DNA from: an uncultured Acidobacteriaceae bacterium
GTDB taxonomy: Bacteria > Acidobacteriota > Terriglobia > Terriglobales > Acidobacteriaceae
Reading direction: 5' to 3'
Length of the DNA stretch: 64,000 nt
Assembly (NCBI GenBank): GCA_963836565.1
Contig: CAWIKA010000005.1
Coordinates: forward strand, 557,685 to 621,684
The position numbers were made by a program, and so were the translations under genes. Under the pieces are notes generated by a model. The model did no database searches and was not told where the DNA came from. It saw only the letters and a list, made by a program, of their open reading frames with translations. Positions within the stretch are counted from its first letter, which is position 1. Each line of letters starts with the position of its first letter. Below are positions 33,175 through 60,904 of the stretch, in pieces.

Positions 33175-33355
33175 CTTGACCTCTGCCGTGACAGCACAAG
33201 TAAACGATTGAAAACAAATGATTTCATGGGCGTTGATGGCTAAGTTCAGCACCCTTGAGCATTCAAAAACACCGGGAAAATCGCCAATTTCAGTTTTCAA
33301 CACCCTCTCCAGCACCCTCGACTTTTCACGGCTCAGAAACCCCTTGACCTCTGCC
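33175..33355 (+). repeat. Cluster of short direct repeats near attL (arm-type binding-site candidates)
   Basis: CTTGACCTCTGCC at 33175 and 33343; CARCACCCT at 33247, 33298 and 33310. Nearby inverted repeat AAGTTGTTT-N5-AAACAACTT at 33060-33082. Confidence 0.6.
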
Positions 33356-33493
33356 TATGTTCAACACAGGTCGGGCGCAGGCCGTTTTGATCTCTGGCGC
33401 AAACGACCAGAGATCAATAATTGGTCACGGCCTCCTGCGAACCAGTTTCGATTCCTATCGACGCGTCCATGAGTGCCTAGGCGGAGATAACCG
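33345..33493 (+). repeat. Left-end repeat copy L1 (146-bp direct repeat of 41413-41558)
   Basis: Gapless alignment with 41413-41558, about 13 mismatches over the last 129 bp by hand count; ends GGCGGAG-ATAACCG. Confidence 0.92.
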
Positions 33494-33515
33494 CTCGTAG
33501 AAAATCGAATTGAAT

Positions 33516-40398: not shown

Positions 40399-40467
40399 AC
40401 CTTATTGCCCTATGCAGCGACAACAACAGGTCACGAATGACCTTTGGAAGAATCATGGAGTCACACA

Positions 40468-41193
40468 ATGAACCCTCTGCTTCTCACCTCGATGGCGGCC
40501 GTTTCAACTTCTGTGGGCGGCTATTGTGCCGTCCTGCTGCAGCGGAGAGTCCATCTGCTCATGTCCTTCGGCACCGGAGTGCTCGTTGGCGCTGCCCTGC
40601 TGGATTTGCTCCCCTCCGCATTGTCGGCCGCGGAAAGCTCAGGTTCATCGAAGGCACTGGTTTTTCCCATCGCTGCCTTCGGCGGCCTGCTTATCTTCTG
40701 CATCGGGGAAGTAGCGAGCCGTTATCGAGCAAACAGGGTCGGTAATCGATCGGCCGGAAGGGTCAGTGCCTCTTTCCTCATTGTGCACAGCACTCTCGAC
40801 GGAACGGCTATCTTCGCTGCGTCCACCATATCGCTGCAGTTGGGGCTGATTGTGGGACTCGGAGTCGTAGCGCACGATATATGCGACGGATTGAACACGA
40901 TCCTGCTGGCCACCGGCGCAGAAAAACCTGGATGGACCGATTACGGGTTTCTGGCGCTCGATGCCCTGGCGCCCATCGCCGGCGGCCTGATCGCAGCCCA
41001 TCTCTTCCGGGTCTCCGATGCGCTGGTCATGGTCTTTCTTAGCCTTGCGGCAGGATCCTTTCTCTTTACCGCATTCTTCGGTCTGCTTCCCGATACTTGG
41101 CGACGCGCAAGCCGCAGTCTGGTGCTCTCCCTTGGACTCGTCGGCTTTTTGCTGATCCTGTGCCTCACAAAGCTGGTCGGCGCGCTTGGGTAG
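40468..41193 (+). CDS. ZIP-family metal transporter
   Basis: FGTGVLVGAALLDLLP, VHSTLDG, VAHDICDG, AAGSFLF...LLP. Confidence 0.85.
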   Translation: MNPLLLTSMAAVSTSVGGYCAVLLQRRVHLLMSFGTGVLVGAALLDLLPSALSAAESSGSSKALVFPIAAFGGLLIFCIGEVASRYRANRVGNRSAGRVSASFLIVHSTLDGTAIFAASTISLQLGLIVGLGVVAHDICDGLNTILLATGAEKPGWTDYGFLALDALAPIAGGLIAAHLFRVSDALVMVFLSLAAGSFLFTAFFGLLPDTWRRASRSLVLSLGLVGFLLILCLTKLVGALG

Positions 41194-41412
41194 AAGGAGT
41201 GGCCCCGCGGCACCGGCGAGATCAACCGAAAGTTTGGTGGAGACACTCCGCTGATTCGTACAGGCAAACGCGCTCATTGACGAGGGCGCACGTGACTGGA
41301 ATCAGCTTCTGGACGGCAATCGCTGCGCTTCTGCACCCGACCGGCGCCCTCGTCGTTTCATCTATCTCCGCAGGTCACTGGAGCTTTGAGATTTACGCGC
41401 GCGGCTATGCGA

Positions 41413-41567
41413 TGACCACTGCTCAGGCACAACATAGGTCAGGCGCACGCCGGTTTGACCTCTGGTGCAAACGACCAGAGATCAATAATCGGTCACGGCC
41501 TCCTGCGAACCAGTTTCGATTCCTATCGACTCGTCCGAGAGTGAGTTGGCGGAGATAAGCGGCCAAT
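41413..41567 (+). repeat. Left-end repeat copy L2, including the terminal inverted repeat ATAAGCGGCCAAT (41555-41567)
   Basis: Direct repeat of L1; TGGCGGA core at 41547-41553. Confidence 0.92.
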
Positions 41568-41619
41568 AAGCTGGGCCACGTGATCGTGGGTTGCAGTAAG
41601 AAGTTATATTTTCTTTCAG

Positions 41620-42237
41620 TTGGATTTTCTTCAGGAGGCGGAGCCCCGCTTCCTGCCAAGCATCTTGGCGGATCGCAGCGGGAAGCGGGACCCGTGTGAG
41701 GTAACGATCCTCTTTGTCCCAGTGTCGGTCCCGCTGGAGCGGCTTGCTGCCGGCTGGGCCGAAGACTCGGACGAGAGTATTTTACGCCGATGCCCGGTTT
41801 GCGAACAGGATTCGATTGTTGGCCATGGGCGACGGCGCAAGCAGGCGCACGACGAGCATCACGATTGGATCGGGATTCGCCGGGGCCGCTGTATCCGATG
41901 CGGAAAGACATTCACGTTTCTGCCGGTGTTCTCTCTGCCCTATACGCATTACAGCCTGCTGGCGCGCTGCCAGGCATTGCTGCGTCGCTTTGTGGAGCAC
42001 TGTTCGTGGGAGAAGGCAGCGCCGAAGTTGAAGGATCCTGACCGCGTACCCGATTCTTCCACTGTGCGCCGCTGGTCGCAAGGTGTGGACGAGTCACAGC
42101 CGGCCCTGTCTTTTCTGCGCAAGGTGGCTGCGCGAGCGGCTAAGTGGCTGGAATCTGCTTACTCGGATCAGGACGAGGCAGCGTTCTTATCCTGGCTGAC
42201 TCCGGTTCTCGAAGTCATCTGCCCTATGCGCCGCTGA
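41620..42237 (+). CDS. Zn-ribbon protein (DUF6431-like) with C-terminal HTH-like segment
   Basis: CPVC...GHGRRRK...IRRGRCIRCGKTFTFLP...Y; VPDSSTVRRW. Start uncertain. Confidence 0.72.
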   Translation: MDFLQEAEPRFLPSILADRSGKRDPCEVTILFVPVSVPLERLAAGWAEDSDESILRRCPVCEQDSIVGHGRRRKQAHDEHHDWIGIRRGRCIRCGKTFTFLPVFSLPYTHYSLLARCQALLRRFVEHCSWEKAAPKLKDPDRVPDSSTVRRWSQGVDESQPALSFLRKVAARAAKWLESAYSDQDEAAFLSWLTPVLEVICPMRR

Positions 42238-42320
42238 GAAAAAATCCTTTTCCCCACCATCCTTGCCTGGGAACTCCAGCATGGTTCTCCTACGCTGGGC
42301 TCCGGAGGCGAAAAGGCGCT

Positions 42321-43310
42321 GTGGGTGAAGACGTCGAAAGACTAAAGCGGCGAACGCCGCTGCTGGAGTACCTGCGACAGCACGACTGGGCAGGGCGGCC
42401 CGCAGGCCGATTCGAGTATGTCGGACTCTGTCCACTACACAAGGAGAGTCAGCCGTCGTTCTATGTGAACGCGCGCAAAGATGTCTTCTACTGTCACGGC
42501 TGCGGACAGGGCGGCGATCTCATCCGCTTCGTCCAGTTATCGCGCGGCTTATCCTTCCGCCAGAGCGTGGCCAGCCTCGATCCGGAGATCGCTCCGCAAG
42601 CTGATTCCAACGCTGTGCTTGAGGATGCCGCGGCGTTCTATCAGCAGCAACTGGATCGCTGCTCCGAGGCGCTCGACTATCTCCACCGGCGCGGAGTGCA
42701 TGATCCGGCACTGTTCCGGGAACTCGGCATCGGCTACGCACCAGGTGGAACCCTGCGCCGATATCTGACCGCGCAAGGCTATTCGTTCGATGTGTTGCAA
42801 AGGCTCGGCCTCATCGACGCTCGTGGCGCGGATGCTCTCTATCAGCGCATCGTGTTTCCGTTGCAGCAGAGCGAGCACATCGTCAACCTCTACGGCCGCA
42901 GCATCGGTTCTGCGTTCGCCCATCGCTTCCTGCCCGGGAGCAAGGGCGGCCTGTATGCATGGGAGAAGGTTCGCAACTGCTCCGAGGTGGTTCTGGTCGA
43001 AGGGCTGTTCGACTATGCCGCCCTGCGGCAGGCTGGGTTCCATAACGTGACCTGCTCGCTGGGTACACAGCTCAACCAAGACCAGTTCCGCCAGTTGTGC
43101 GAAGGCCAACGCACCGTCTATCTCACCTTCGATGTCGATCGGAACCAGAGCGGCCAGCAAGCTGCAGAGCAACTGGCTCAGCGTCTTGTCATGCAAGGTA
43201 TCTCGGCACGTCGCGTTCTCCTGCCTGATGGTCATGATCCTAACTCCTTCTTCGTTGAAGGAGGAGACGCACCTCAGTTCCAGTCTCTGCTGGAGGCTGC
43301 GCAGCCATGA
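42321..43310 (+). CDS. DnaG-like primase (CHC2 Zn finger + Toprim, no helicase-binding domain)
   Basis: GLCPLHKESQPSFYV, FYCHGCGQGGDLIRFV, RIVFP, LYGR, VVLVEGLFD, YLTFDVD; GTG 42321 after GGAGG. Confidence 0.92.
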   Translation: MGEDVERLKRRTPLLEYLRQHDWAGRPAGRFEYVGLCPLHKESQPSFYVNARKDVFYCHGCGQGGDLIRFVQLSRGLSFRQSVASLDPEIAPQADSNAVLEDAAAFYQQQLDRCSEALDYLHRRGVHDPALFRELGIGYAPGGTLRRYLTAQGYSFDVLQRLGLIDARGADALYQRIVFPLQQSEHIVNLYGRSIGSAFAHRFLPGSKGGLYAWEKVRNCSEVVLVEGLFDYAALRQAGFHNVTCSLGTQLNQDQFRQLCEGQRTVYLTFDVDRNQSGQQAAEQLAQRLVMQGISARRVLLPDGHDPNSFFVEGGDAPQFQSLLEAAQP

Positions 43311-44350
43311 AGTTCCACGTGATCTCGAAAAAGACCTCTACGGGCGCGCATAGTCCGATTCAGGTGGTGCAGCAATCCACCGGCAAGGGCGTTGCGTGGA
43401 TTAATCGGTACCTCGACCGCGAGTACGTCCGCCGCCTCGCAGACAAGTCCCTCTACAGCTACGCGCACAGCCTGTTGCACTTCGTACGCTGGTGGGAGAG
43501 TGTCCATCACACTGGTGAAATCTCTGCTGCTGACCTTACCGAGTCGACTCTGTTCGATTACGTACGCTTCCAATCGAGCCTCCGACCTCCGCCTTCTGCC
43601 TCCACCATCAACGACCGCACCGCCACTGCCGATCGCGCTATCCGTAATCAGTTCCCCGATGCTCCATGTCAGGTCGCGCACGGCTTCCATCAGCCCTTCC
43701 TGCACCGCAGGCCGATGGGCCTGGGACGGCCCAGGTTCGAGCTGAGCAGACTCAGAGTGCGGGAACCCAGGCTCAACGTCGTTCCTCTCTCGGTCGATGA
43801 AGTGGCGCGCTTCTGGTCCAGTTTTCGAAACGCTCGCGACCTGGCCATCGTCGGCCTGATGCTGATGCAGGGGCTCCGCTCCGCCGAAGTGATGGCCTTG
43901 AACCGTGACGATGTGCTGCTCTCCGAAGGGCAGCTTCGGGTGCGCGGCAAGGGGAACAAGCTACGCTTGCTGCCCCTGGCGCCGGAAACCACGCAACTGC
44001 TCGATCACTATCTCCGCGTCGAGCGCCCCGATCCCTGTTCGGCGGCACTGTTCGTGGTCTTGAAAGGGTCCGCTCGCGGCCAACGCATGACACCGGCGGG
44101 ATTACGCTCCCTGTTCCGTCATCATCGCCGCACCTCCGGCGTTCAACTAGCCAATCCCCACCGGTTCAGACATACCTTCGCCTCGGACATGGTGCGCGCC
44201 GGCATCAGCCTGCCCGCGCTGATGCAGTTGATGGGTCATGCCGACATCGAGACCACCATGCACTACGTGAAGGTCTCACCGCAGGATGTCTATCTCCAGT
44301 ACGCCCGCGCGGCGGCGCAATGTATCCATCCGCAACCGAGGATCTCCTGA
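43307..44350 (+). CDS. Tyrosine recombinase 1
   Basis: GLRSAE, VRGKGNK, PHRFRHTFA, LMGHADIETTMHY; ATGA overlap with the primase stop. Confidence 0.96.
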   Translation: MKFHVISKKTSTGAHSPIQVVQQSTGKGVAWINRYLDREYVRRLADKSLYSYAHSLLHFVRWWESVHHTGEISAADLTESTLFDYVRFQSSLRPPPSASTINDRTATADRAIRNQFPDAPCQVAHGFHQPFLHRRPMGLGRPRFELSRLRVREPRLNVVPLSVDEVARFWSSFRNARDLAIVGLMLMQGLRSAEVMALNRDDVLLSEGQLRVRGKGNKLRLLPLAPETTQLLDHYLRVERPDPCSAALFVVLKGSARGQRMTPAGLRSLFRHHRRTSGVQLANPHRFRHTFASDMVRAGISLPALMQLMGHADIETTMHYVKVSPQDVYLQYARAAAQCIHPQPRIS

Positions 44351-45486
44351 TGCGCTGGCGCCGTCCTCCACTTCAGCATCCCCTGGCACTGGCCTTCGCG
44401 CACGCGGTCGAGTCTCTGTGCACCGCACTCACTCCTTCCAGCAAACGCAATTACGACATCGCGGTGCGCAGCTTCCTCGTTTATCTGGGCGCAGAATATC
44501 CGAAGATTACTCGTCTCGAACAACTGCGCCGCGATCCTCATATCCTCGGATGGATGGCGCACCTGCGCGCCCAGAATCCGCCTCTGGCCACGGCAACCTG
44601 CATCGGACGGCTCTTCGCGCTGCGCACTATCTTCCATGAGCTCGCTCGCACCAGCCATCTCGCTGAACTGGCCCACTTGCTGCTGCGCGAGGATATCCCG
44701 CGCTCGCCCCATACTCTGCCACGACCGCTTACCCCCGAGCAGGATCAAATCCTCCAGCAGGAGTTCATGCGCCGCAACGATCTCGGCGGAAATGTCTTCC
44801 TCCTGCTCCGCTCGACCGGCATGCGTATCGGCGAGTGCGTCGATCTCTCCTACGACTGTCTGCGCTCCACGGGGCCGAACCAATGGGCCATCCATGTTCC
44901 CCTCGGCAAACTCAAGACCGAGCGCATGGTCCCGGTCGATATCTTCGGCCGCGATCTCGTGCACCGCCTGCGCTTCTTCCGCTCTCTCGACCCTCTGCCT
45001 GCGGATGGTCGCCTACTGGCGCGGCCCGGAAGCAAAATAGCTATCCTGGTTCAGCTCCGCGATTACCTGCATCAGGTCTGCCACTCCCTCGGACTCTCTA
45101 CTCGCATCGTCCCCCATCAGTTCAGACACACTTACGCCACGGAGATGCTTCGCTCCGGGGTCAGCTTCCCCGTCCTGATGAAATTACTCGGCCACGTCGA
45201 TCCGGCCATGACCATGCGTTACGTCGATGTCGCCCTCACCGATCTCGAACGCGAGTTCCAGTTGGCTCGTTCCAAACCCAGGCATCTGGCTCCACAACCC
45301 AAAACTTCGACCGCACCCGCAAGGGCAGGCCTCGACGGCCTCATCGATGCCTTAGTCGCCGCTCAACACCTTATGGAGATGTTCCGTCGATCGCTCACAA
45401 ACGGCAGCGCTCGCAATCGGCTCCTCCGGCTCTCCAAACGCCTCATCAAAATCCTGACCGAGATAAGAAAACTCCACACCACCTGA
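44350..45486 (+). CDS. Tyrosine recombinase 2 with C-terminal helical extension
   Basis: TGMRIGE, LGKLKTER, PHQFRHTYA, LLGHVDPAMTMRY; TGATG overlap with recombinase 1. Confidence 0.96.
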   Translation: MRWRRPPLQHPLALAFAHAVESLCTALTPSSKRNYDIAVRSFLVYLGAEYPKITRLEQLRRDPHILGWMAHLRAQNPPLATATCIGRLFALRTIFHELARTSHLAELAHLLLREDIPRSPHTLPRPLTPEQDQILQQEFMRRNDLGGNVFLLLRSTGMRIGECVDLSYDCLRSTGPNQWAIHVPLGKLKTERMVPVDIFGRDLVHRLRFFRSLDPLPADGRLLARPGSKIAILVQLRDYLHQVCHSLGLSTRIVPHQFRHTYATEMLRSGVSFPVLMKLLGHVDPAMTMRYVDVALTDLEREFQLARSKPRHLAPQPKTSTAPARAGLDGLIDALVAAQHLMEMFRRSLTNGSARNRLLRLSKRLIKILTEIRKLHTT

Positions 45487-45521
45487 ATGAAAATGGGCAC
45501 CGATTGGCCGGTTATGGCGGA
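45473..45521 (+). repeat. Right-end copy R1
   Basis: tccacaccacctgaatgaaaatgggcaccg-ATTGGCCGGTTAT-ggcgga. Confidence 0.88.
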
Positions 45522-45652
45522 TTTGTCATCCGTCGAGCGAAATCTCATCAAAGCGAAACACACTTCTTAGTAGCGAGACGCACGGGGCGGATCTGCAACC
45601 TTTCTGGAAAACCGCCTTGTCAGGAAGCTTCGGACAACTCAGTCTGTGGAGA

Positions 45653-46048
45653 TCATTTGGAGTCGTACCTGACCTGCGACTTCCTAACCCGCTCCCAATT
45701 TGCCTTGGCCCAATCGACCAATCCTTGGGTGGGGCGAATCAGGCTCTTTCCAAGATCAGTAATTTCGTACTCCACGCGTGGCGGCACTTCGGGAAAGAGT
45801 TCGCGTATTACCAACCCGTCACGTTCGAGATTCTTGAGCGTCACCGATAGCATCCGCTGTGAGATTCCTGGAATCGCACGGTCGAGCTCGGAGAATCGCG
45901 CCCGTCCGCCGAGGAGATCGAGCGAAAGAATCAAGAATATACTCCACTTGTCGCCAATTTTCGTCAGCAGCTCCCTGACCGCCATCGGGTCTGAGCTTTT
46001 GCAAACTGCTGCGGGATCCAGGGGTTCAGTCCTGCGTTGCTTCTTCAT
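45653..46048 (-). CDS. HxlR-family winged-helix regulator
   Basis: KIGDKWSIFL, RFSELDRAIPGISQRMLSVTLKNLERDGLV, PPRVEYEIT. Confidence 0.94.
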   Translation of the reverse strand: MKKQRRTEPLDPAAVCKSSDPMAVRELLTKIGDKWSIFLILSLDLLGGRARFSELDRAIPGISQRMLSVTLKNLERDGLVIRELFPEVPPRVEYEITDLGKSLIRPTQGLVDWAKANWERVRKSQVRYDSK

Positions 46049-46157
46049 GGCTTACCTTGGTGTTAGCTACTACTCTCGAAGTGCCTTCTTGTTCGATAGT
46101 AGCTTACTATTTTATAGTCACTTCGTTGAACGCCATAAAGCGAGTGGAGAATTCAGA

Positions 46158-46583
46158 ATGCCTGCTTCGAAATATGCTGCCTATAAAGCCGCCGACCCTT
46201 ACTTCAATGTGGTTCGACAGGCGCTGGGTGACCGTGTCGATGGCGAACACTTCTTTGACATCGTTACCGACGACACCATTTACGAGGTTCTCTATGATCT
46301 GGGCTGGCCTCGCATCATTCGGGGACGAACCGACCTGATGAATGCGTTCAGGGGGTATGTCGACATCATCAAGCTGCGCTCCGCAGATAACCTGGTGGTC
46401 CACACAACGGACGCTGGTCATGTCATCGTCATTGAGTATGAGGTCCATGGGACTGTCCTCGCGACAGGCGGGAAATACGACAACCGATTTTGCTCCATCA
46501 TTCAGCTTGAGAATCGGAAAATCTCGCATTGGAGAGACTATATGGACTCTCACGCGGCCTGGAATGCATTGTCGCGGCACTGA
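46158..46583 (+). CDS. SnoaL/NTF2-family protein
   Basis: IRGRTDL, VIVIEYEVHG, KYDNRFCSII, KISHWRDYMD; divergent from HxlR. Confidence 0.88.
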   Translation: MPASKYAAYKAADPYFNVVRQALGDRVDGEHFFDIVTDDTIYEVLYDLGWPRIIRGRTDLMNAFRGYVDIIKLRSADNLVVHTTDAGHVIVIEYEVHGTVLATGGKYDNRFCSIIQLENRKISHWRDYMDSHAAWNALSRH

Positions 46584-46621
46584 TAACCACTCACGCCGCA
46601 TAATCACCGCAAGAATTCTGG

Positions 46622-46669
46622 TCCGCACCACCCGAATGGAAAACGGGTACCGATTGGGCGGCTATGACG
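46622..46669 (+). repeat. Diverged right-end copy R2
   Basis: tccgcaccacccgaatggaaaacgggtaccg-ATTGGGCGGCTAT-gacg aligns with R1. Confidence 0.8.
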
Positions 46670-46760
46670 ATTTGGCGTCAAGCAACAGTTTCTGACAGAA
46701 AGAGGCTAAAGGATTGAGCGGGAGCATGCCCTCCTGACGGATCACCCGTTTAGAAATATA

Positions 46761-52529: not shown

Positions 52530-52541
52530 AGCATTCTCAAG

Positions 52542-54393
52542 GTGAGTAGGCCTGAGGACTTTCACCCCAAGCCCCTCGCAGAACCGTGCGTAAATCTCTC
52601 GATTTACACGGCTCCCATTATCCAACCGAATATCTGGTAACGTTCCAGTAGAAAAACATCTGAGGGAAGCAGTTCTTCATCTTGATGAGCCATTGCACAC
52701 TGGCCTGCTCTCGCCGCTCCAGTGTCTGGTATTTGCGTCTGGCCCATTGCATCAGCTTGCCATCGAAATACATGGCGAAGCTGTGCATCGCCGATGGGTA
52801 GAACTCCCCGAAGTAATTCCACCAGCCACGTAGTACCGGATTGTATTGCTTCGCCAGTTCAGCAAGTGTCGTTGCTGTCCGGCGATGGATGCGCCAGCCC
52901 CGCACCTCCTTCCGCATTCGCTTCAGAGCATCAACACTCACGCCCGGCGTAAAGCTTGTGAATCTCCGGCCTTGTCTGTTGACAGCACGCCTTGGACGAA
53001 ATGTAAATCCAAGGAATGTGAACTGAACATGCGGATAAGAGGCATTGCGGCCACTGCTCTTGCAGTACACAATTCGCGATTTCTCCGGGTGCATCGTCAA
53101 CCCGCATTCCGTCAGTCGCAATGCGATGGACCGCATTACTTGTTCTGCCTGTTTCCGATTTCGGCAGTGAACCACAGCGTCATCGGCGTAACGGGCAAAC
53201 GGACATGATGGATTGGTGCGTTGCATCCAGACATCGAACGCGTAGTGCATGAACAGGTTCATCAAAATCGGACTGACGACTCCGCCTTGCGGTGTGCCTC
53301 GTTGCCGCGACACCCGTTCGCCGTCTGTGGTCTCGAACGGAGCGGTTAGCCACCGTTCGATATACAGCAGTATCCAGTCCTCCTTGATGTGGCTGCGGAC
53401 CGCTTTCAACAAGAGGCCATGATCGATTTGATCGAAGGCTGACTTGATGTCAAACTCCACCACCCATGCGTATTGCCAGCACCGTTTTCTGGTGACTGCC
53501 ACCGCCTGTTTCGCCGACTTACCAGGCCGATACCCATAGGAATCCTGATGGAATAACGGGTCCAATGTCGGTTCGATGATGCGCTTGACCACGGTCTGCG
53601 CAATGCGATCAGATACAGTCGGAATACCGAGCTTTCTCGTGCCGCCCTTTGCCTTCGGAATTTCAACCTGTTTCACCGGAGGCGGGAAGTACGACCCCGA
53701 CGACATCCGGTTCCACAGTTTGTACAAATTCCTCGACAGGTTCTGCTCGAACATCGCAAGGGTTTCCCCATCGATGCCGGCAGCGCCCCGATTGGCCTTG
53801 ACCTGCTGGTATGCCTCCCATACTGCGCGCTTCGCAATAACATACGGTTTCGTTGATGTCATATCACTCATCCCCATGAAACAGGTTGGCGATACTCGTC
53901 AACTGGATAACGCTGCCCCTTCGCTCCACCCTCATTACAAGAGCTTCATGGCTACTACGAGCAGCTCCGTCCCTTGCTCTGGCATCGGTATTCTTCCTCA
54001 TGGTGTTTGCCATTTGTCATTTCCCTTCTCATCCAGAGCAAAGTTCTCACGTTCCGTACCAAAGCCTGTGTTGAGTTCATGCCGCCTTTACACCGACTGC
54101 CACCGGGACCGTAAGCAGGTTCCTTCCCGGCTAATCATGGAGCAGGTGGGCTCCCCACTTTTGGCAGTTCCTTAACCCGTAACGATGCGTCATCGGCCGG
54201 TTTGCTTTCGCTCATCTCCTCAACACGTACCTGACCTCCTGATCGGAAGTCTTTTCCCCAGTTGTTCACTACCGCGCCTTTTGAACGCAGCAGCACTGGG
54301 CGGTTTGAAGCCTGCTCCTGCAAGCCGACTTCGGGAGGCCTACTCCCATCTTTGGTACAGCACCGCGAGCTTGCGCTCGCGTTCGTGACACAC
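52542..54393 (-). mobile_element. Group II intron, RmInt1-like (bacterial class D), 1,852 nt
   Basis: 5' end GTGTGTCACG at 54393; domain V GGGAGCCGTGTAAATCGAGAGATTTACGCACGGTTCT; domain VI ending CTACTCAC at 52542. Confidence 0.92.
52618..53862 (-). CDS. ltrA: Group II intron reverse transcriptase/maturase (no endonuclease domain)
   Basis: KANRGAAGIDG, LGIPTVSDR, GTPQGGVVSP, RYADD, FTFLGF, maturase X domain NPVLRGWWNYF. Confidence 0.96.
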   Translation of the reverse strand: MTSTKPYVIAKRAVWEAYQQVKANRGAAGIDGETLAMFEQNLSRNLYKLWNRMSSGSYFPPPVKQVEIPKAKGGTRKLGIPTVSDRIAQTVVKRIIEPTLDPLFHQDSYGYRPGKSAKQAVAVTRKRCWQYAWVVEFDIKSAFDQIDHGLLLKAVRSHIKEDWILLYIERWLTAPFETTDGERVSRQRGTPQGGVVSPILMNLFMHYAFDVWMQRTNPSCPFARYADDAVVHCRNRKQAEQVMRSIALRLTECGLTMHPEKSRIVYCKSSGRNASYPHVQFTFLGFTFRPRRAVNRQGRRFTSFTPGVSVDALKRMRKEVRGWRIHRRTATTLAELAKQYNPVLRGWWNYFGEFYPSAMHSFAMYFDGKLMQWARRKYQTLERREQASVQWLIKMKNCFPQMFFYWNVTRYSVG

Positions 54394-60551: not shown

Positions 60552-60904
60552 ATAAGCGGCCAATCAGTTCCCATTTTGAGGTGTGGAAAATATTGCACGT
60601 TGCGAGGCCGATCAGGCTATATCTTCACCAGCCGATACTCCGCGATAGAACGAGAATGCCAACTCTCATTTGCTCCTCTGCAACGCACTGCATGGATTCC
60701 AGGTATCAGAGGCCGTCATGAGCGCAACTCGTGCCGCTACGCGGCACTCAAGTCTCAGCAACGACCGACCCGTGCTCAAACAAGAAGTGAAAACACCCTG
60801 TTTGAAAGTAAGAAATCCGGCTGAAAAATAATACAGCGTCTGTCCCAGCCGCGCCATACCTGGCGTTGCTCAGATAATGCTGGTCTAAAAGATTGGCCGC
60901 TTAT
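60552..60904 (-). mobile_element. 353-bp non-autonomous derivative of the recombinase-primase element (inverted)
   Basis: Perfect terminal inverted repeats ATAAGCGGCCAAT (60552-60564) and ATTGGCCGCTTAT (60892-60904). The 60552 end matches R1; the 60904 end and outer flank match L2. Confidence 0.85.

Follow-up and report, generated by a model that had tools for sequence, protein, structure and literature searches.

A compact Tn554-like transposable element with a DnaG-type primase and palindromic targets in Acidobacteriaceae

We analyzed a 64,000-nt stretch of contig CAWIKA010000005.1 from an uncultured Acidobacteriaceae bacterium (hereafter "the window", which always means the whole stretch). 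An initial annotation of this DNA had noticed a compact unit encoding a zinc-ribbon protein, a DnaG-like primase and two tyrosine recombinases. By in silico comparison, this mobile unit (41548–45515, 3968 bp) is a copy of a transposable element of Acidobacteriaceae that is autonomous and was active recently. We favor, with a probability of roughly 70%, a joint reading in which an active Tn554-related element would move through a circular donor, with two types of recombination arms and a replicative step that uses its primase. Labels of the form L### denote loci fetched from other metagenome-assembled genomes (MAGs) or from metagenome contigs.

The distribution of the unit speaks for its mobility. 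A scan of one genome per species matched 356 coding stretches, and the best 80 of these 356 all belong to Acidobacteriota (Acidobacteriaceae, Terracidiphilus, Granulicella); for the element there are >1000 protein clusters, and genomic matches number in the hundreds. The 3.95–3.97 kb unit was found in dozens of different flanks. Among multicopy Acidobacteriaceae MAGs built from long reads, CAVPKQ01 holds at least 12 copies and CAVZEH01 at least 7. Within a MAG the copies are 99.5–99.97% identical over ~3.97 kb, their flanks are all different, and the likeness ceases within ~20 nt of the terminal repeats. A copy 98.8% identical to that of the window is located at another site, and contigs that differ in their neighbouring genes encode one identical DUF6431 protein (P0016) within this four-gene unit. 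No full-length copy seen was without the DUF6431 or the primase gene, and this holds for subfamilies with as little as 63% identity. Four-gene synteny and 13-bp ends common to homologues, which the initial annotation had proposed to look for, were found across the multicopy MAGs. Decayed or interrupted copies also occur there: L060 is without the left repeat, the match to L051 ends after 1.7 kb and that to L018 ends before the right end.

Assembled contigs of four soil metagenomes were aligned to the window. Contigs in two soil metagenomes, from different studies, join 41546 to 45515 and skip exactly 3968 bp, which provides the empty site that had been suggested as a further check. Its sequence, GAGAGTGAGT-TGGCGGA-TTTGTCATCC, contains a single TGGCGGA, whose 7 letters can be assigned to either side. 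In the runs with the empty site, the depth of the element is 4–10x that of the flanks, and loose ends at both borders lead into other flanks. Recurrence in dozens of flanks and an exact empty site bear out the original proposal of a compact mobile element with defined ends.

Open reading frames and Pfam matches confirmed the four co-oriented genes (Table 1), and the element holds no cargo genes besides them. The two overlaps described at the outset are both present: ATGA (43307–43310) joins the primase stop to the gene of tyrosine recombinase A (YR-A), and TGATG (44348–44352) joins YR-A to tyrosine recombinase B (YR-B). Two CxxC pairs, CPVC (residue 58) and CIRC (residue 91), and a STVRRW helix motif are found in the DUF6431 protein; in its homologues C58, C61, C91, C94 and the STxRRW motif are invariant. 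There are more than 1140 homologues, nearly all from soil, peat and wetland assemblies and many on short contigs. We found no DUF6431 match in plasmids (tblastn), PHROGs or IMG/VR, and the AlphaFold2 model (mean predicted local distance difference test score 43) was too poor for a fold search. Elsewhere, in other phyla, DUF6431 is annotated beside a DDE transposase (PMC12323340), which fits an accessory DNA-binding role in transposons. The DUF6431 protein of the element is probably such a DNA-binding accessory factor.

The start of the primase was placed at GTG 42321 and not at 42144, because all homologues are 329 aa long. Its closest solved relative is Aquifex DnaG (2au3, E 2.4e-34, residues 3–318), and the zinc ligands C37, H40, C58 and C61 as well as the acidic residues E227, D271, D273, D303 and D306 are all intact. 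Against the DnaG model TIGR01391 of NCBIfam it scores 167 bits, for a cut-off of 284. The first two domains of a replicative DnaG (zinc-binding and RNA-polymerase/Toprim) are present and the C-terminal one is not: the protein stops at residue 329 and has no helicase-binding (DnaB-binding) domain. Neither an initiator nor a helicase nor a recognizable origin was found in the element.

Both recombinases retain the complete R-K-HxxR-H-Y set claimed for them, and all residues could be located: R191, K218, H285, R288, H311 and Y320 in YR-A (by alignment with XerD), and R159, K187/189, H256, R259, H282 and Y291 in YR-B. The two proteins can be aligned over their last 66 residues only, and that their N-terminal halves cannot is as expected if each reads a different DNA. 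The best NCBIfam scores of both are with Xer models, under the cut-offs of these models. Between subfamilies, the ratio of nonsynonymous to synonymous substitution rates is 0.06–0.16 for YR-A, 0.10–0.21 for YR-B, 0.15–0.25 for the primase and 0.21–0.35 for DUF6431, which indicates purifying selection on each of the four genes. In L035, L046, L062 and L083, set against the window element, the four genes have diverged unevenly between subfamilies (in L035, YR-A is 96% and DUF6431 75% identical); this suggests recombination between element lineages.

The initial annotation had set the unit apart from Tn554 as a new class, a view that the relatives of its recombinases contradict. The best plasmid relatives of both recombinases are in annotated plasmids of Rhodococcus and Mycobacterium. 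One Rhodococcus locus encodes, one after the other, a recombinase (360 aa), an integrase (564 aa) and a DUF6262 protein, and the same architecture is present beside fexA on a staphylococcal plasmid. The record of the latter bears no transposon name; the fexA cargo and the gene sizes identify the trio as Tn558, a relative of Tn554. YR-A matches the TnpA-like Rhodococcus protein (37% identity, E 9e-51) and prefers TnpA of Tn558 (E 2e-15) to its TnpB (2e-5), while YR-B matches the large TnpB-like Rhodococcus integrase (35% identity, E 1e-36) and TnpB of Tn558 (E 9e-21). YR-B aligns to residues 137–462 of the 564-aa Rhodococcus protein and is without its N- and C-terminal extensions. Reciprocal best matches of YR-A with TnpA and of YR-B with TnpB, in the same gene order, place the pair in the Tn554 lineage by homology.

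The ends of the element are sharply defined. The left and right 13-bp repeats are complementary at 12 of 13 positions, and TGGCGGA is present at both junctions (41547–41553 and 45515–45521), as originally reported. The exact 13-mer ATTGGCCGNTTAT occurs 4 times in the 64 kb, only at the ends of the main element and of a mini-element of 353 bp. With a 21-nt probe for the ends there were 3 matches in the window and 0 in 100 shuffles. The end repeats are not due to chance. As for the extent of the unit, the proposal that the 13-bp repeats form its ends stood, and the left boundary had to be moved: the unit begins 7 nt earlier, at 41548, because the GGCGGAG left of the left repeat belongs to the element. 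Alignment of 13 elements and 3 mini-elements defined conserved subterminal blocks on both sides, and the left block may be a promoter or a site for an accessory protein.

To describe the insertion site we built a logo from 60 distinct insertions. Outside the repeats, information reaches 21 nt out from the left repeat and 22 nt from the right one (positions -21 to +21), with none farther out. The left flank has the consensus TCGATGAGTGCnTT (positions -21 to -8) followed by GGCGGAG, and the right flank reads GGCGAT followed by TTnGCACTCATCGAGA; the left and right outer stretches are reverse complements of each other. The target is a palindrome of ~34–36 bp, TCGATGAGTGCATT-GGCGAT-TTTGCACTCATCGA (left arm, core and right arm), into which the element inserts in one orientation. 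The flanks are not random sequence: ~21 nt on each side fit this intergenic palindrome. Its outer arms are target-derived, because they vary among near-identical copies within one genome.

The two spacers behave differently. The left 7-mer is fixed per genome (GGCGAAG in 10/10 copies of CAVPKQ, GGCGGAG in 7/7 copies of CAVZEH), whereas the right 7-mer is variable (GGCGATT, GGCTATG, GGCCTGA and others). The constant left 7-mer is therefore that of the element and the variable right 7-mer that of the target. Collapsed element-length contigs begin with (T)GGCGGAG and finish with TTATGGC. The joint is at T^GGCG, always with the element spacer by the left end and the target core by the right end. 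Three divergent subfamilies have other cores, such as GTCGGTT/GTCGCC and CAGGGAG/CAGGCC, in which left and right spacers agree in the first 4 nt. Spacer identity is 4–5 nt in most insertions and 7 nt at the site of the window. By this comparison the TGGCGGA seen at both junctions does not reflect target duplication: on the left it is spacer of the element, on the right core of the target.

Unoccupied look-alike sites are frequent in the flanks of the fetched loci (97 matches, 8 in shuffled sequence), with ~17 above 25 bits in 1.2 Mb; one example is L090:5381, TCGTTGAGCGCATT|GGCGATTTGGCGTAAGGCGAGA. A motif scan found no unoccupied target inside the window at 12 bits or more. Most sites, whether occupied or not, fall between genes: reading frames that cover them have a median of 82–105 codons, compared to 378 at random positions. 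Unoccupied sites have nothing in common past ~36 bp, and an extended repeat around the targets was rejected on this ground. A single-stranded, folded attC-like target was also rejected, since the crossover lies at the border of arm and spacer in a double-stranded core-type site and not at the base of a stem. Besides the main left arm TCGATGAGTGCATT, at least two alternative left-arm types, TGGAAACGCGCATT and TCAGTTTACGCATT, are found repeatedly at occupied and empty sites (L002, L004, L005, L008, L003, L046, L049 and others). The target palindromes therefore make up several families, like repetitive extragenic palindromic (REP) sequences. Within the window, the stretch 41381–41420 (GAGATTTACGCGCGC-GGCTATG-CGATGACCACTGCTCAGG) bears a weak resemblance by eye, below the scan threshold, to the target variant with left arms of the TCAGTTTACGC type; it falls exactly where a 149-bp repeat starts.

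The initial annotation had predicted a junction ATTGGCCGGTTAT-GGCGGAG-ATAACCGGCCAAT between the two ends, and this junction exists in independent metagenomes. Scanning metagenome contigs for right repeat-GGCGNAG-left repeat returned two contigs, L105 and L106, and zero-mismatch junction contigs were present in three further peat or permafrost runs from different studies. L106 contains, in order, a flank, the full element, the junction and the start of a second left end. L105 contains unrelated DNA, a truncated 3' remnant of another subfamily (78% identical), the junction and a new left end. As assembled, the junction consists of a 7-bp spacer between 13-bp arms that are inverted relative to each other.

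We propose that this head-to-tail junction would be the donor site of a circular intermediate, with the palindrome as its chromosomal partner. As donor and target each have their own pair of inverted arms, there would be one recombinase per arm type, one bound to the inner (element) arms and the other to the outer (target) arms, with two of each in every synapse, be it of donor with target or of left with right junction. The arm length and spacing of both sites match those of classical tyrosine-recombinase core sites. [quoted passage not shown] A match over the first 4–5 spacer nt, together with an outcome that is always asymmetric, fits one-strand exchange or a crossover confined to the core. 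The primase would then prime the complementary (second) strand of a copied-out intermediate and make transposition replicative, which would explain the many identical copies. With neither a helicase-binding domain in the primase nor an initiator or helicase in the element, priming of a complementary strand suits it better than autonomous replication of a circle, and a self-replicating circle is the weaker reading. The DUF6431 protein would act as a DNA-binding accessory or regulatory factor in place of TnpC. The most specific form of this proposal, a self-priming replicative tyrosine-recombinase transposon with arm-divided recombinases, one-strand exchange at T^GGCG, its own primase and a retained donor, is put forward only tentatively, and we regard it as rather doubtful.

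Several observations weigh against the joint reading. At a few loci (the window, L006, L012 and L052) the right spacer is GGCGGAT or GGCGGAG, so part of the element spacer sometimes ends up on the right. The empty site may never have been occupied instead of being left by excision. L105 shows that at least one junction is a chromosomal tandem, inserted beside a resident right end; such a tandem is expected if the donor junction recombines with any site that has a core and a right arm. DNA and RNA contigs aligned to the window gave no circle-type joints across the element ends, and element-length contigs showed no terminal overlap as a sign of circularity. Metatranscriptome contigs of relatives span the whole element, which would point to expression, although such libraries can contain DNA. 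The primase appears tied to transposition through conservation, operon coupling and selection only, and the DUF6431 protein, instead of a recombinase, could be the reader of the outer arms.

The same sites could serve a conservative cut-out and paste-in, the model of the initial annotation, with both strands exchanged in the core (T)GGCG(GA), a double-stranded circle that leaves an empty site and a primase that lets this circle replicate before reintegration. Such an order of events has parallels, as pairs of an integrase and a primase are frequent in elements whose excision precedes their replication (P4, phage satellites, actinomycete integrative and conjugative elements), and it agrees with the existence of the empty site, with window junctions that are identical over the full 7 nt and with a head-to-tail junction laid out as a classical core site. 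We nevertheless consider it unlikely: spacer identity is mostly 4–5 nt, under the 6–8 bp overlap usual for tyrosine recombinases, at least 12 near-identical copies in one genome need a net gain of copies, and element-length contigs show no terminal overlap. The missing initiator, helicase, recognizable origin and helicase-binding domain of the primase also argue against it. The arms themselves bear on a different division of tasks, in which the DUF6431 protein selects the target on the outer arms and the two recombinases form an XerC/XerD-like heterodimer on the inner arms. Dedicated selectors such as TnsD of Tn7 are known, and the DUF6431 protein resembles a DNA-binding protein (zinc ribbon and helix-turn-helix-like motif). 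Its family also adjoins transposase genes in other phyla (PMC12323340). However, outer and inner arms are equidistant from the crossover (13–14 nt around a 6–7 nt spacer), which is the geometry of a recombinase core, and the inner arms repeat a single sequence in inverted form, which suggests one specificity and not two. We give this division of tasks little credence.

Could the two recombinases suffice, with the primase and the DUF6431 protein as passengers or in another role such as regulation or host interaction? Mini-elements move while coding for nothing, and some actinobacterial Tn554-like couples are without a third gene (PMC3414803). Both genes are nevertheless in all full-length copies seen and under purifying selection, the primase is translationally coupled to YR-A via ATGA and there is no other cargo, which makes a passenger role very improbable. 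As to a piece of a larger prophage, integrative and conjugative element or genomic island, the 149-bp repeat on the left and the second right end 1.1 kb to the right look at first sight like larger borders. Yet flanks differ at each locus, similarity is lost within 21 nt of the 13-bp repeats and the empty site removes exactly 3968 bp. There are no structural, packaging or conjugation genes in the element, no phage or conjugation genes nearby in the window and no match in IMG/VR. The fragment reading, named in the initial annotation as what could overturn its proposal, is excluded by the differing flanks, the sharp ends and the exact empty site, and we are practically certain that it is wrong. 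The 149-bp repeat was rejected as a part of the element, being absent from all other loci, and has no Rfam, tRNA or tmRNA match.

Table 1. Features of the element and of related sequences in the window
Feature	Position	Strand	Remarks
Left outer arm, target-derived half of the palindromic site	41534–41547	.	Variable among near-identical copies of one genome
Element spacer GGCGGAG, moves with the left end	41548–41554	+	Fixed per genome; between the ends in head-to-tail junctions
Left inner arm, 13-bp terminal inverted repeat ATAAGCGGCCAAT	41555–41567	+	Near-invariant over 60 insertions
Left subterminal region	41568–41664	+	Holds block ~41596–41650, GTAAGAAGTTATATTTTCTTTCAGTTGGATTTTCTTCAGGAGG, kept across subfamilies and partly in mini-elements
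DUF6431 zinc-ribbon protein	41620–42237	+	PF20020, E 5.8e-11; start TTG 41620 or TTG 41665
DnaG-type primase, 329 aa	42321–43310	+	Pfam Zn_ribbon_DnaG (CHC2 zinc ribbon), DNAG_N, Toprim
Tyrosine recombinase A (YR-A), 347 aa, TnpA-like	43307–44350	+	PF00589, E 3e-30
Tyrosine recombinase B (YR-B), 378 aa, TnpB-like but short	44350–45486	+	PF00589, E 7.5e-21; 388 aa from ATG 44320
Right subterminal conserved block CACCTGAATGAAAATGGGCACCG	45473–45502	+	Retained in mini-elements; recurs in the solo end at 46622
Right inner arm, 13-bp terminal inverted repeat ATTGGCCGGTTAT	45503–45515	+	
Target core GGCGGAT and right outer arm TTGTCATCCGTCGAG	45516–45537	.	
Non-autonomous mini-element (MITE-like), 353 bp	60552–60904 (with spacer CTCCGCC to 60911)	-	Perfect 13-bp repeats; orientation opposite to that of the main copy
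Solo right-end remnant, 44 nt with ATTGGGCGGCTAT, then its own target core and right arm GACGATTTGGCGTCAAG	46622–46687	+	83% identical to 45473–45525
Apparent decayed left junction	33345–33500	+	149-bp copy of the left flank of the element, then GGCGGAG and ATAACCG

The window also contains derivatives of the element (Table 1). The mini-element resembles a miniature inverted-repeat transposable element (MITE); the CTCCGCC beside its left-end repeat is the reverse complement of GGCGGAG, and the mini-element is flanked by sequence in keeping with the target motif (minus strand, TCAATGAGTGACTT-GGCGGAG). Over 301 bp it shares 85% identity with L065:1404–1702 in another MAG, and a third copy is present in L067. 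Such mini-elements are non-coding and retain ~95 nt at the left end and ~60 nt at the right. The spacer of the L065 mini-element is GGCGGAG, whereas the full-length copies of that genome have GGCGAAG, so each element lineage inherits its own spacer.

The solo right end has the orientation of the intact one and follows 1.15 kb downstream of it. The intervening 1.1 kb (45515–46624, with HxlR and SnoaL-like genes) is 95% identical to the metagenome contig L091:3694–4803; this match starts exactly at the target core, at a site that is unoccupied in L091 and has another left flank there, and ends exactly at the start of the solo end. The 149-bp direct repeat (33345–33493 and 41413–41561) is 86.6% identical, and both copies end in the left target arm and GGCGGAG. 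The copy at 33 kb goes on with ATAACCG, seven bases of the inner arm, and resembles a decayed left junction that was duplicated along with its flank. Synteny breakpoints coincide with element sites, which suggests local rearrangement, flank shuffling or cargo capture. Look-ups of the exact HxlR neighbour protein and of P0001 returned no record. Upstream of the element, 40404–40929 has 93% nucleotide identity to L017:16082–16607 of MAG CAVTMQ01, a fairly close relative. ARAGORN found no tRNA or tmRNA in the window and Rfam only a group II intron elsewhere in it, and a tRNA, tmRNA or known RNA gene as attachment site was rejected. This intron lies at 52541–54347 on the minus strand (D1-D4, RF01999, 106.7 bits; domain V/VI, RF00029, 58.5 bits).

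Dozens of independent insertions, unoccupied targets, mini-elements and core-shifted subfamilies together reveal a layout of four arms and a fixed spacer asymmetry. This layout bears on the roles of TnpA and TnpB, which are unresolved for Tn554-type transposons (PMC3414803, PMC10214605). A constant and constrained DnaG-type primase in a 4-kb transposon points to a DNA-synthesis step in tyrosine-recombinase transposition. If the self-priming replicative reading is true, the element would represent a mechanistic type not described for any transposon and give a first working model of the tasks of TnpA and TnpB across the Tn554 group. In peat and soil Acidobacteria the element is abundant and has recently been active; it fragments short-read assemblies and seems to mark breakpoints of synteny, which makes it relevant to genome plasticity and MAG quality in an important, poorly tractable phylum. 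With a compact recombinase pair, a ~34-bp target and a defined donor site, it might also serve as an integration tool for Acidobacteria.

Among known systems, the Tn554 family shares most with the element: two adjacent co-oriented tyrosine recombinases, TnpA-like then TnpB-like, no target duplication, a preferred site, one orientation and a 6–7 nt junction core (PMC3414803, PMC10214605). The Tn554 lineage is widespread in Actinobacteria, where it is sometimes multicopy, as is the element in some genomes, and sometimes without TnpC (Van Houdt et al., PMC3414803). In contrast to this family, the element has no TnpC (DUF6262) and carries upstream a DUF6431 and a DnaG-type primase gene, not reported in Tn554 relatives; DUF6262 matched none of the four element proteins, and BLASTP of the DUF6431 protein and the primase against two TnpC sequences gave nothing. 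YR-B has 378–388 aa, compared to 564–651 aa for TnpB. The element also has clear 13-bp terminal inverted repeats, no cargo and mini-element derivatives, and uses many dispersed palindromic targets where Tn554 uses a single att554; its hosts here are Acidobacteriota. A recombinase-in-trio (RIT) element with ritA, ritB and ritC is not recognizable, as only two of the four proteins of the element match PF00589.

Matches to the NCBIfam models GmtY and GmtZ (gamma-mobile-trio recombinase and integrase), which we take to be related to SEs, were marginal and far under the cut-offs. By analogy, SEs (for example SE-6283) and GInt elements appear to be the closest mechanistic parallel: they have two catalytic tyrosine recombinases with accessory proteins, short imperfect inverted repeats and target specificity, and SEs have a 6-bp spacer with an asymmetric fate and a copy-out-like behaviour proposed to involve one-strand exchange (PMC10214605). 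As far as their descriptions allow a comparison, SEs differ in a third recombinase-fold protein, Tfp, and in Srap (core genes intA, tfp, intB and srap), in a cargo of 7–16 kb, in being present at 1–2 copies and in their restriction to Gammaproteobacteria (PMC10214605). Their spacer changes with every hop (fingerprint and footprint), whereas the left spacer of the element is constant within and across genomes and therefore not the footprint of an earlier site.

Other parallels concern single features. The element is short and multicopy, with terminal inverted repeats, only transposition genes and non-autonomous derivatives, all features of a classical insertion sequence (IS) with its MITEs; to our knowledge, tyrosine recombinases are not the enzyme type of any IS family. 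IS1397, ISKpn1 and some IS110 members insert into short intergenic REP-like palindromes and avoid genes, using DDE or DEDD transposases. The element is likewise small, multicopy and directed to intergenic palindromes, and differs in its tyrosine recombinases and primase. At dif, with two arms and a 6–8 bp spacer, XerC and XerD are two related recombinases of different arm specificities, and in CTX-type integration only a single pair of strands is exchanged before replication finishes the process. Unlike these, the element encodes its own recombinases, and its partner sites appear symmetric (inner/inner and outer/outer), whereas dif is mixed. Bacteroides NBU1, compared here by description, also combines a tyrosine recombinase with a primase, and its primase homologue PrmN1 is reportedly needed for excision. 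NBU1 is mobilizable and, unlike the element, has one integrase, a mobilization region and a tRNA gene target. Literature searches (DUF6431; primase with tyrosine recombinase and Tn554; mobile elements of Acidobacteria; NBU1 PrmN1) returned no description of the element, which does not prove that none exists. Among the Tn554-like transposons with two recombinases it is apparently an undescribed variant, abundant and active, and not a new class.

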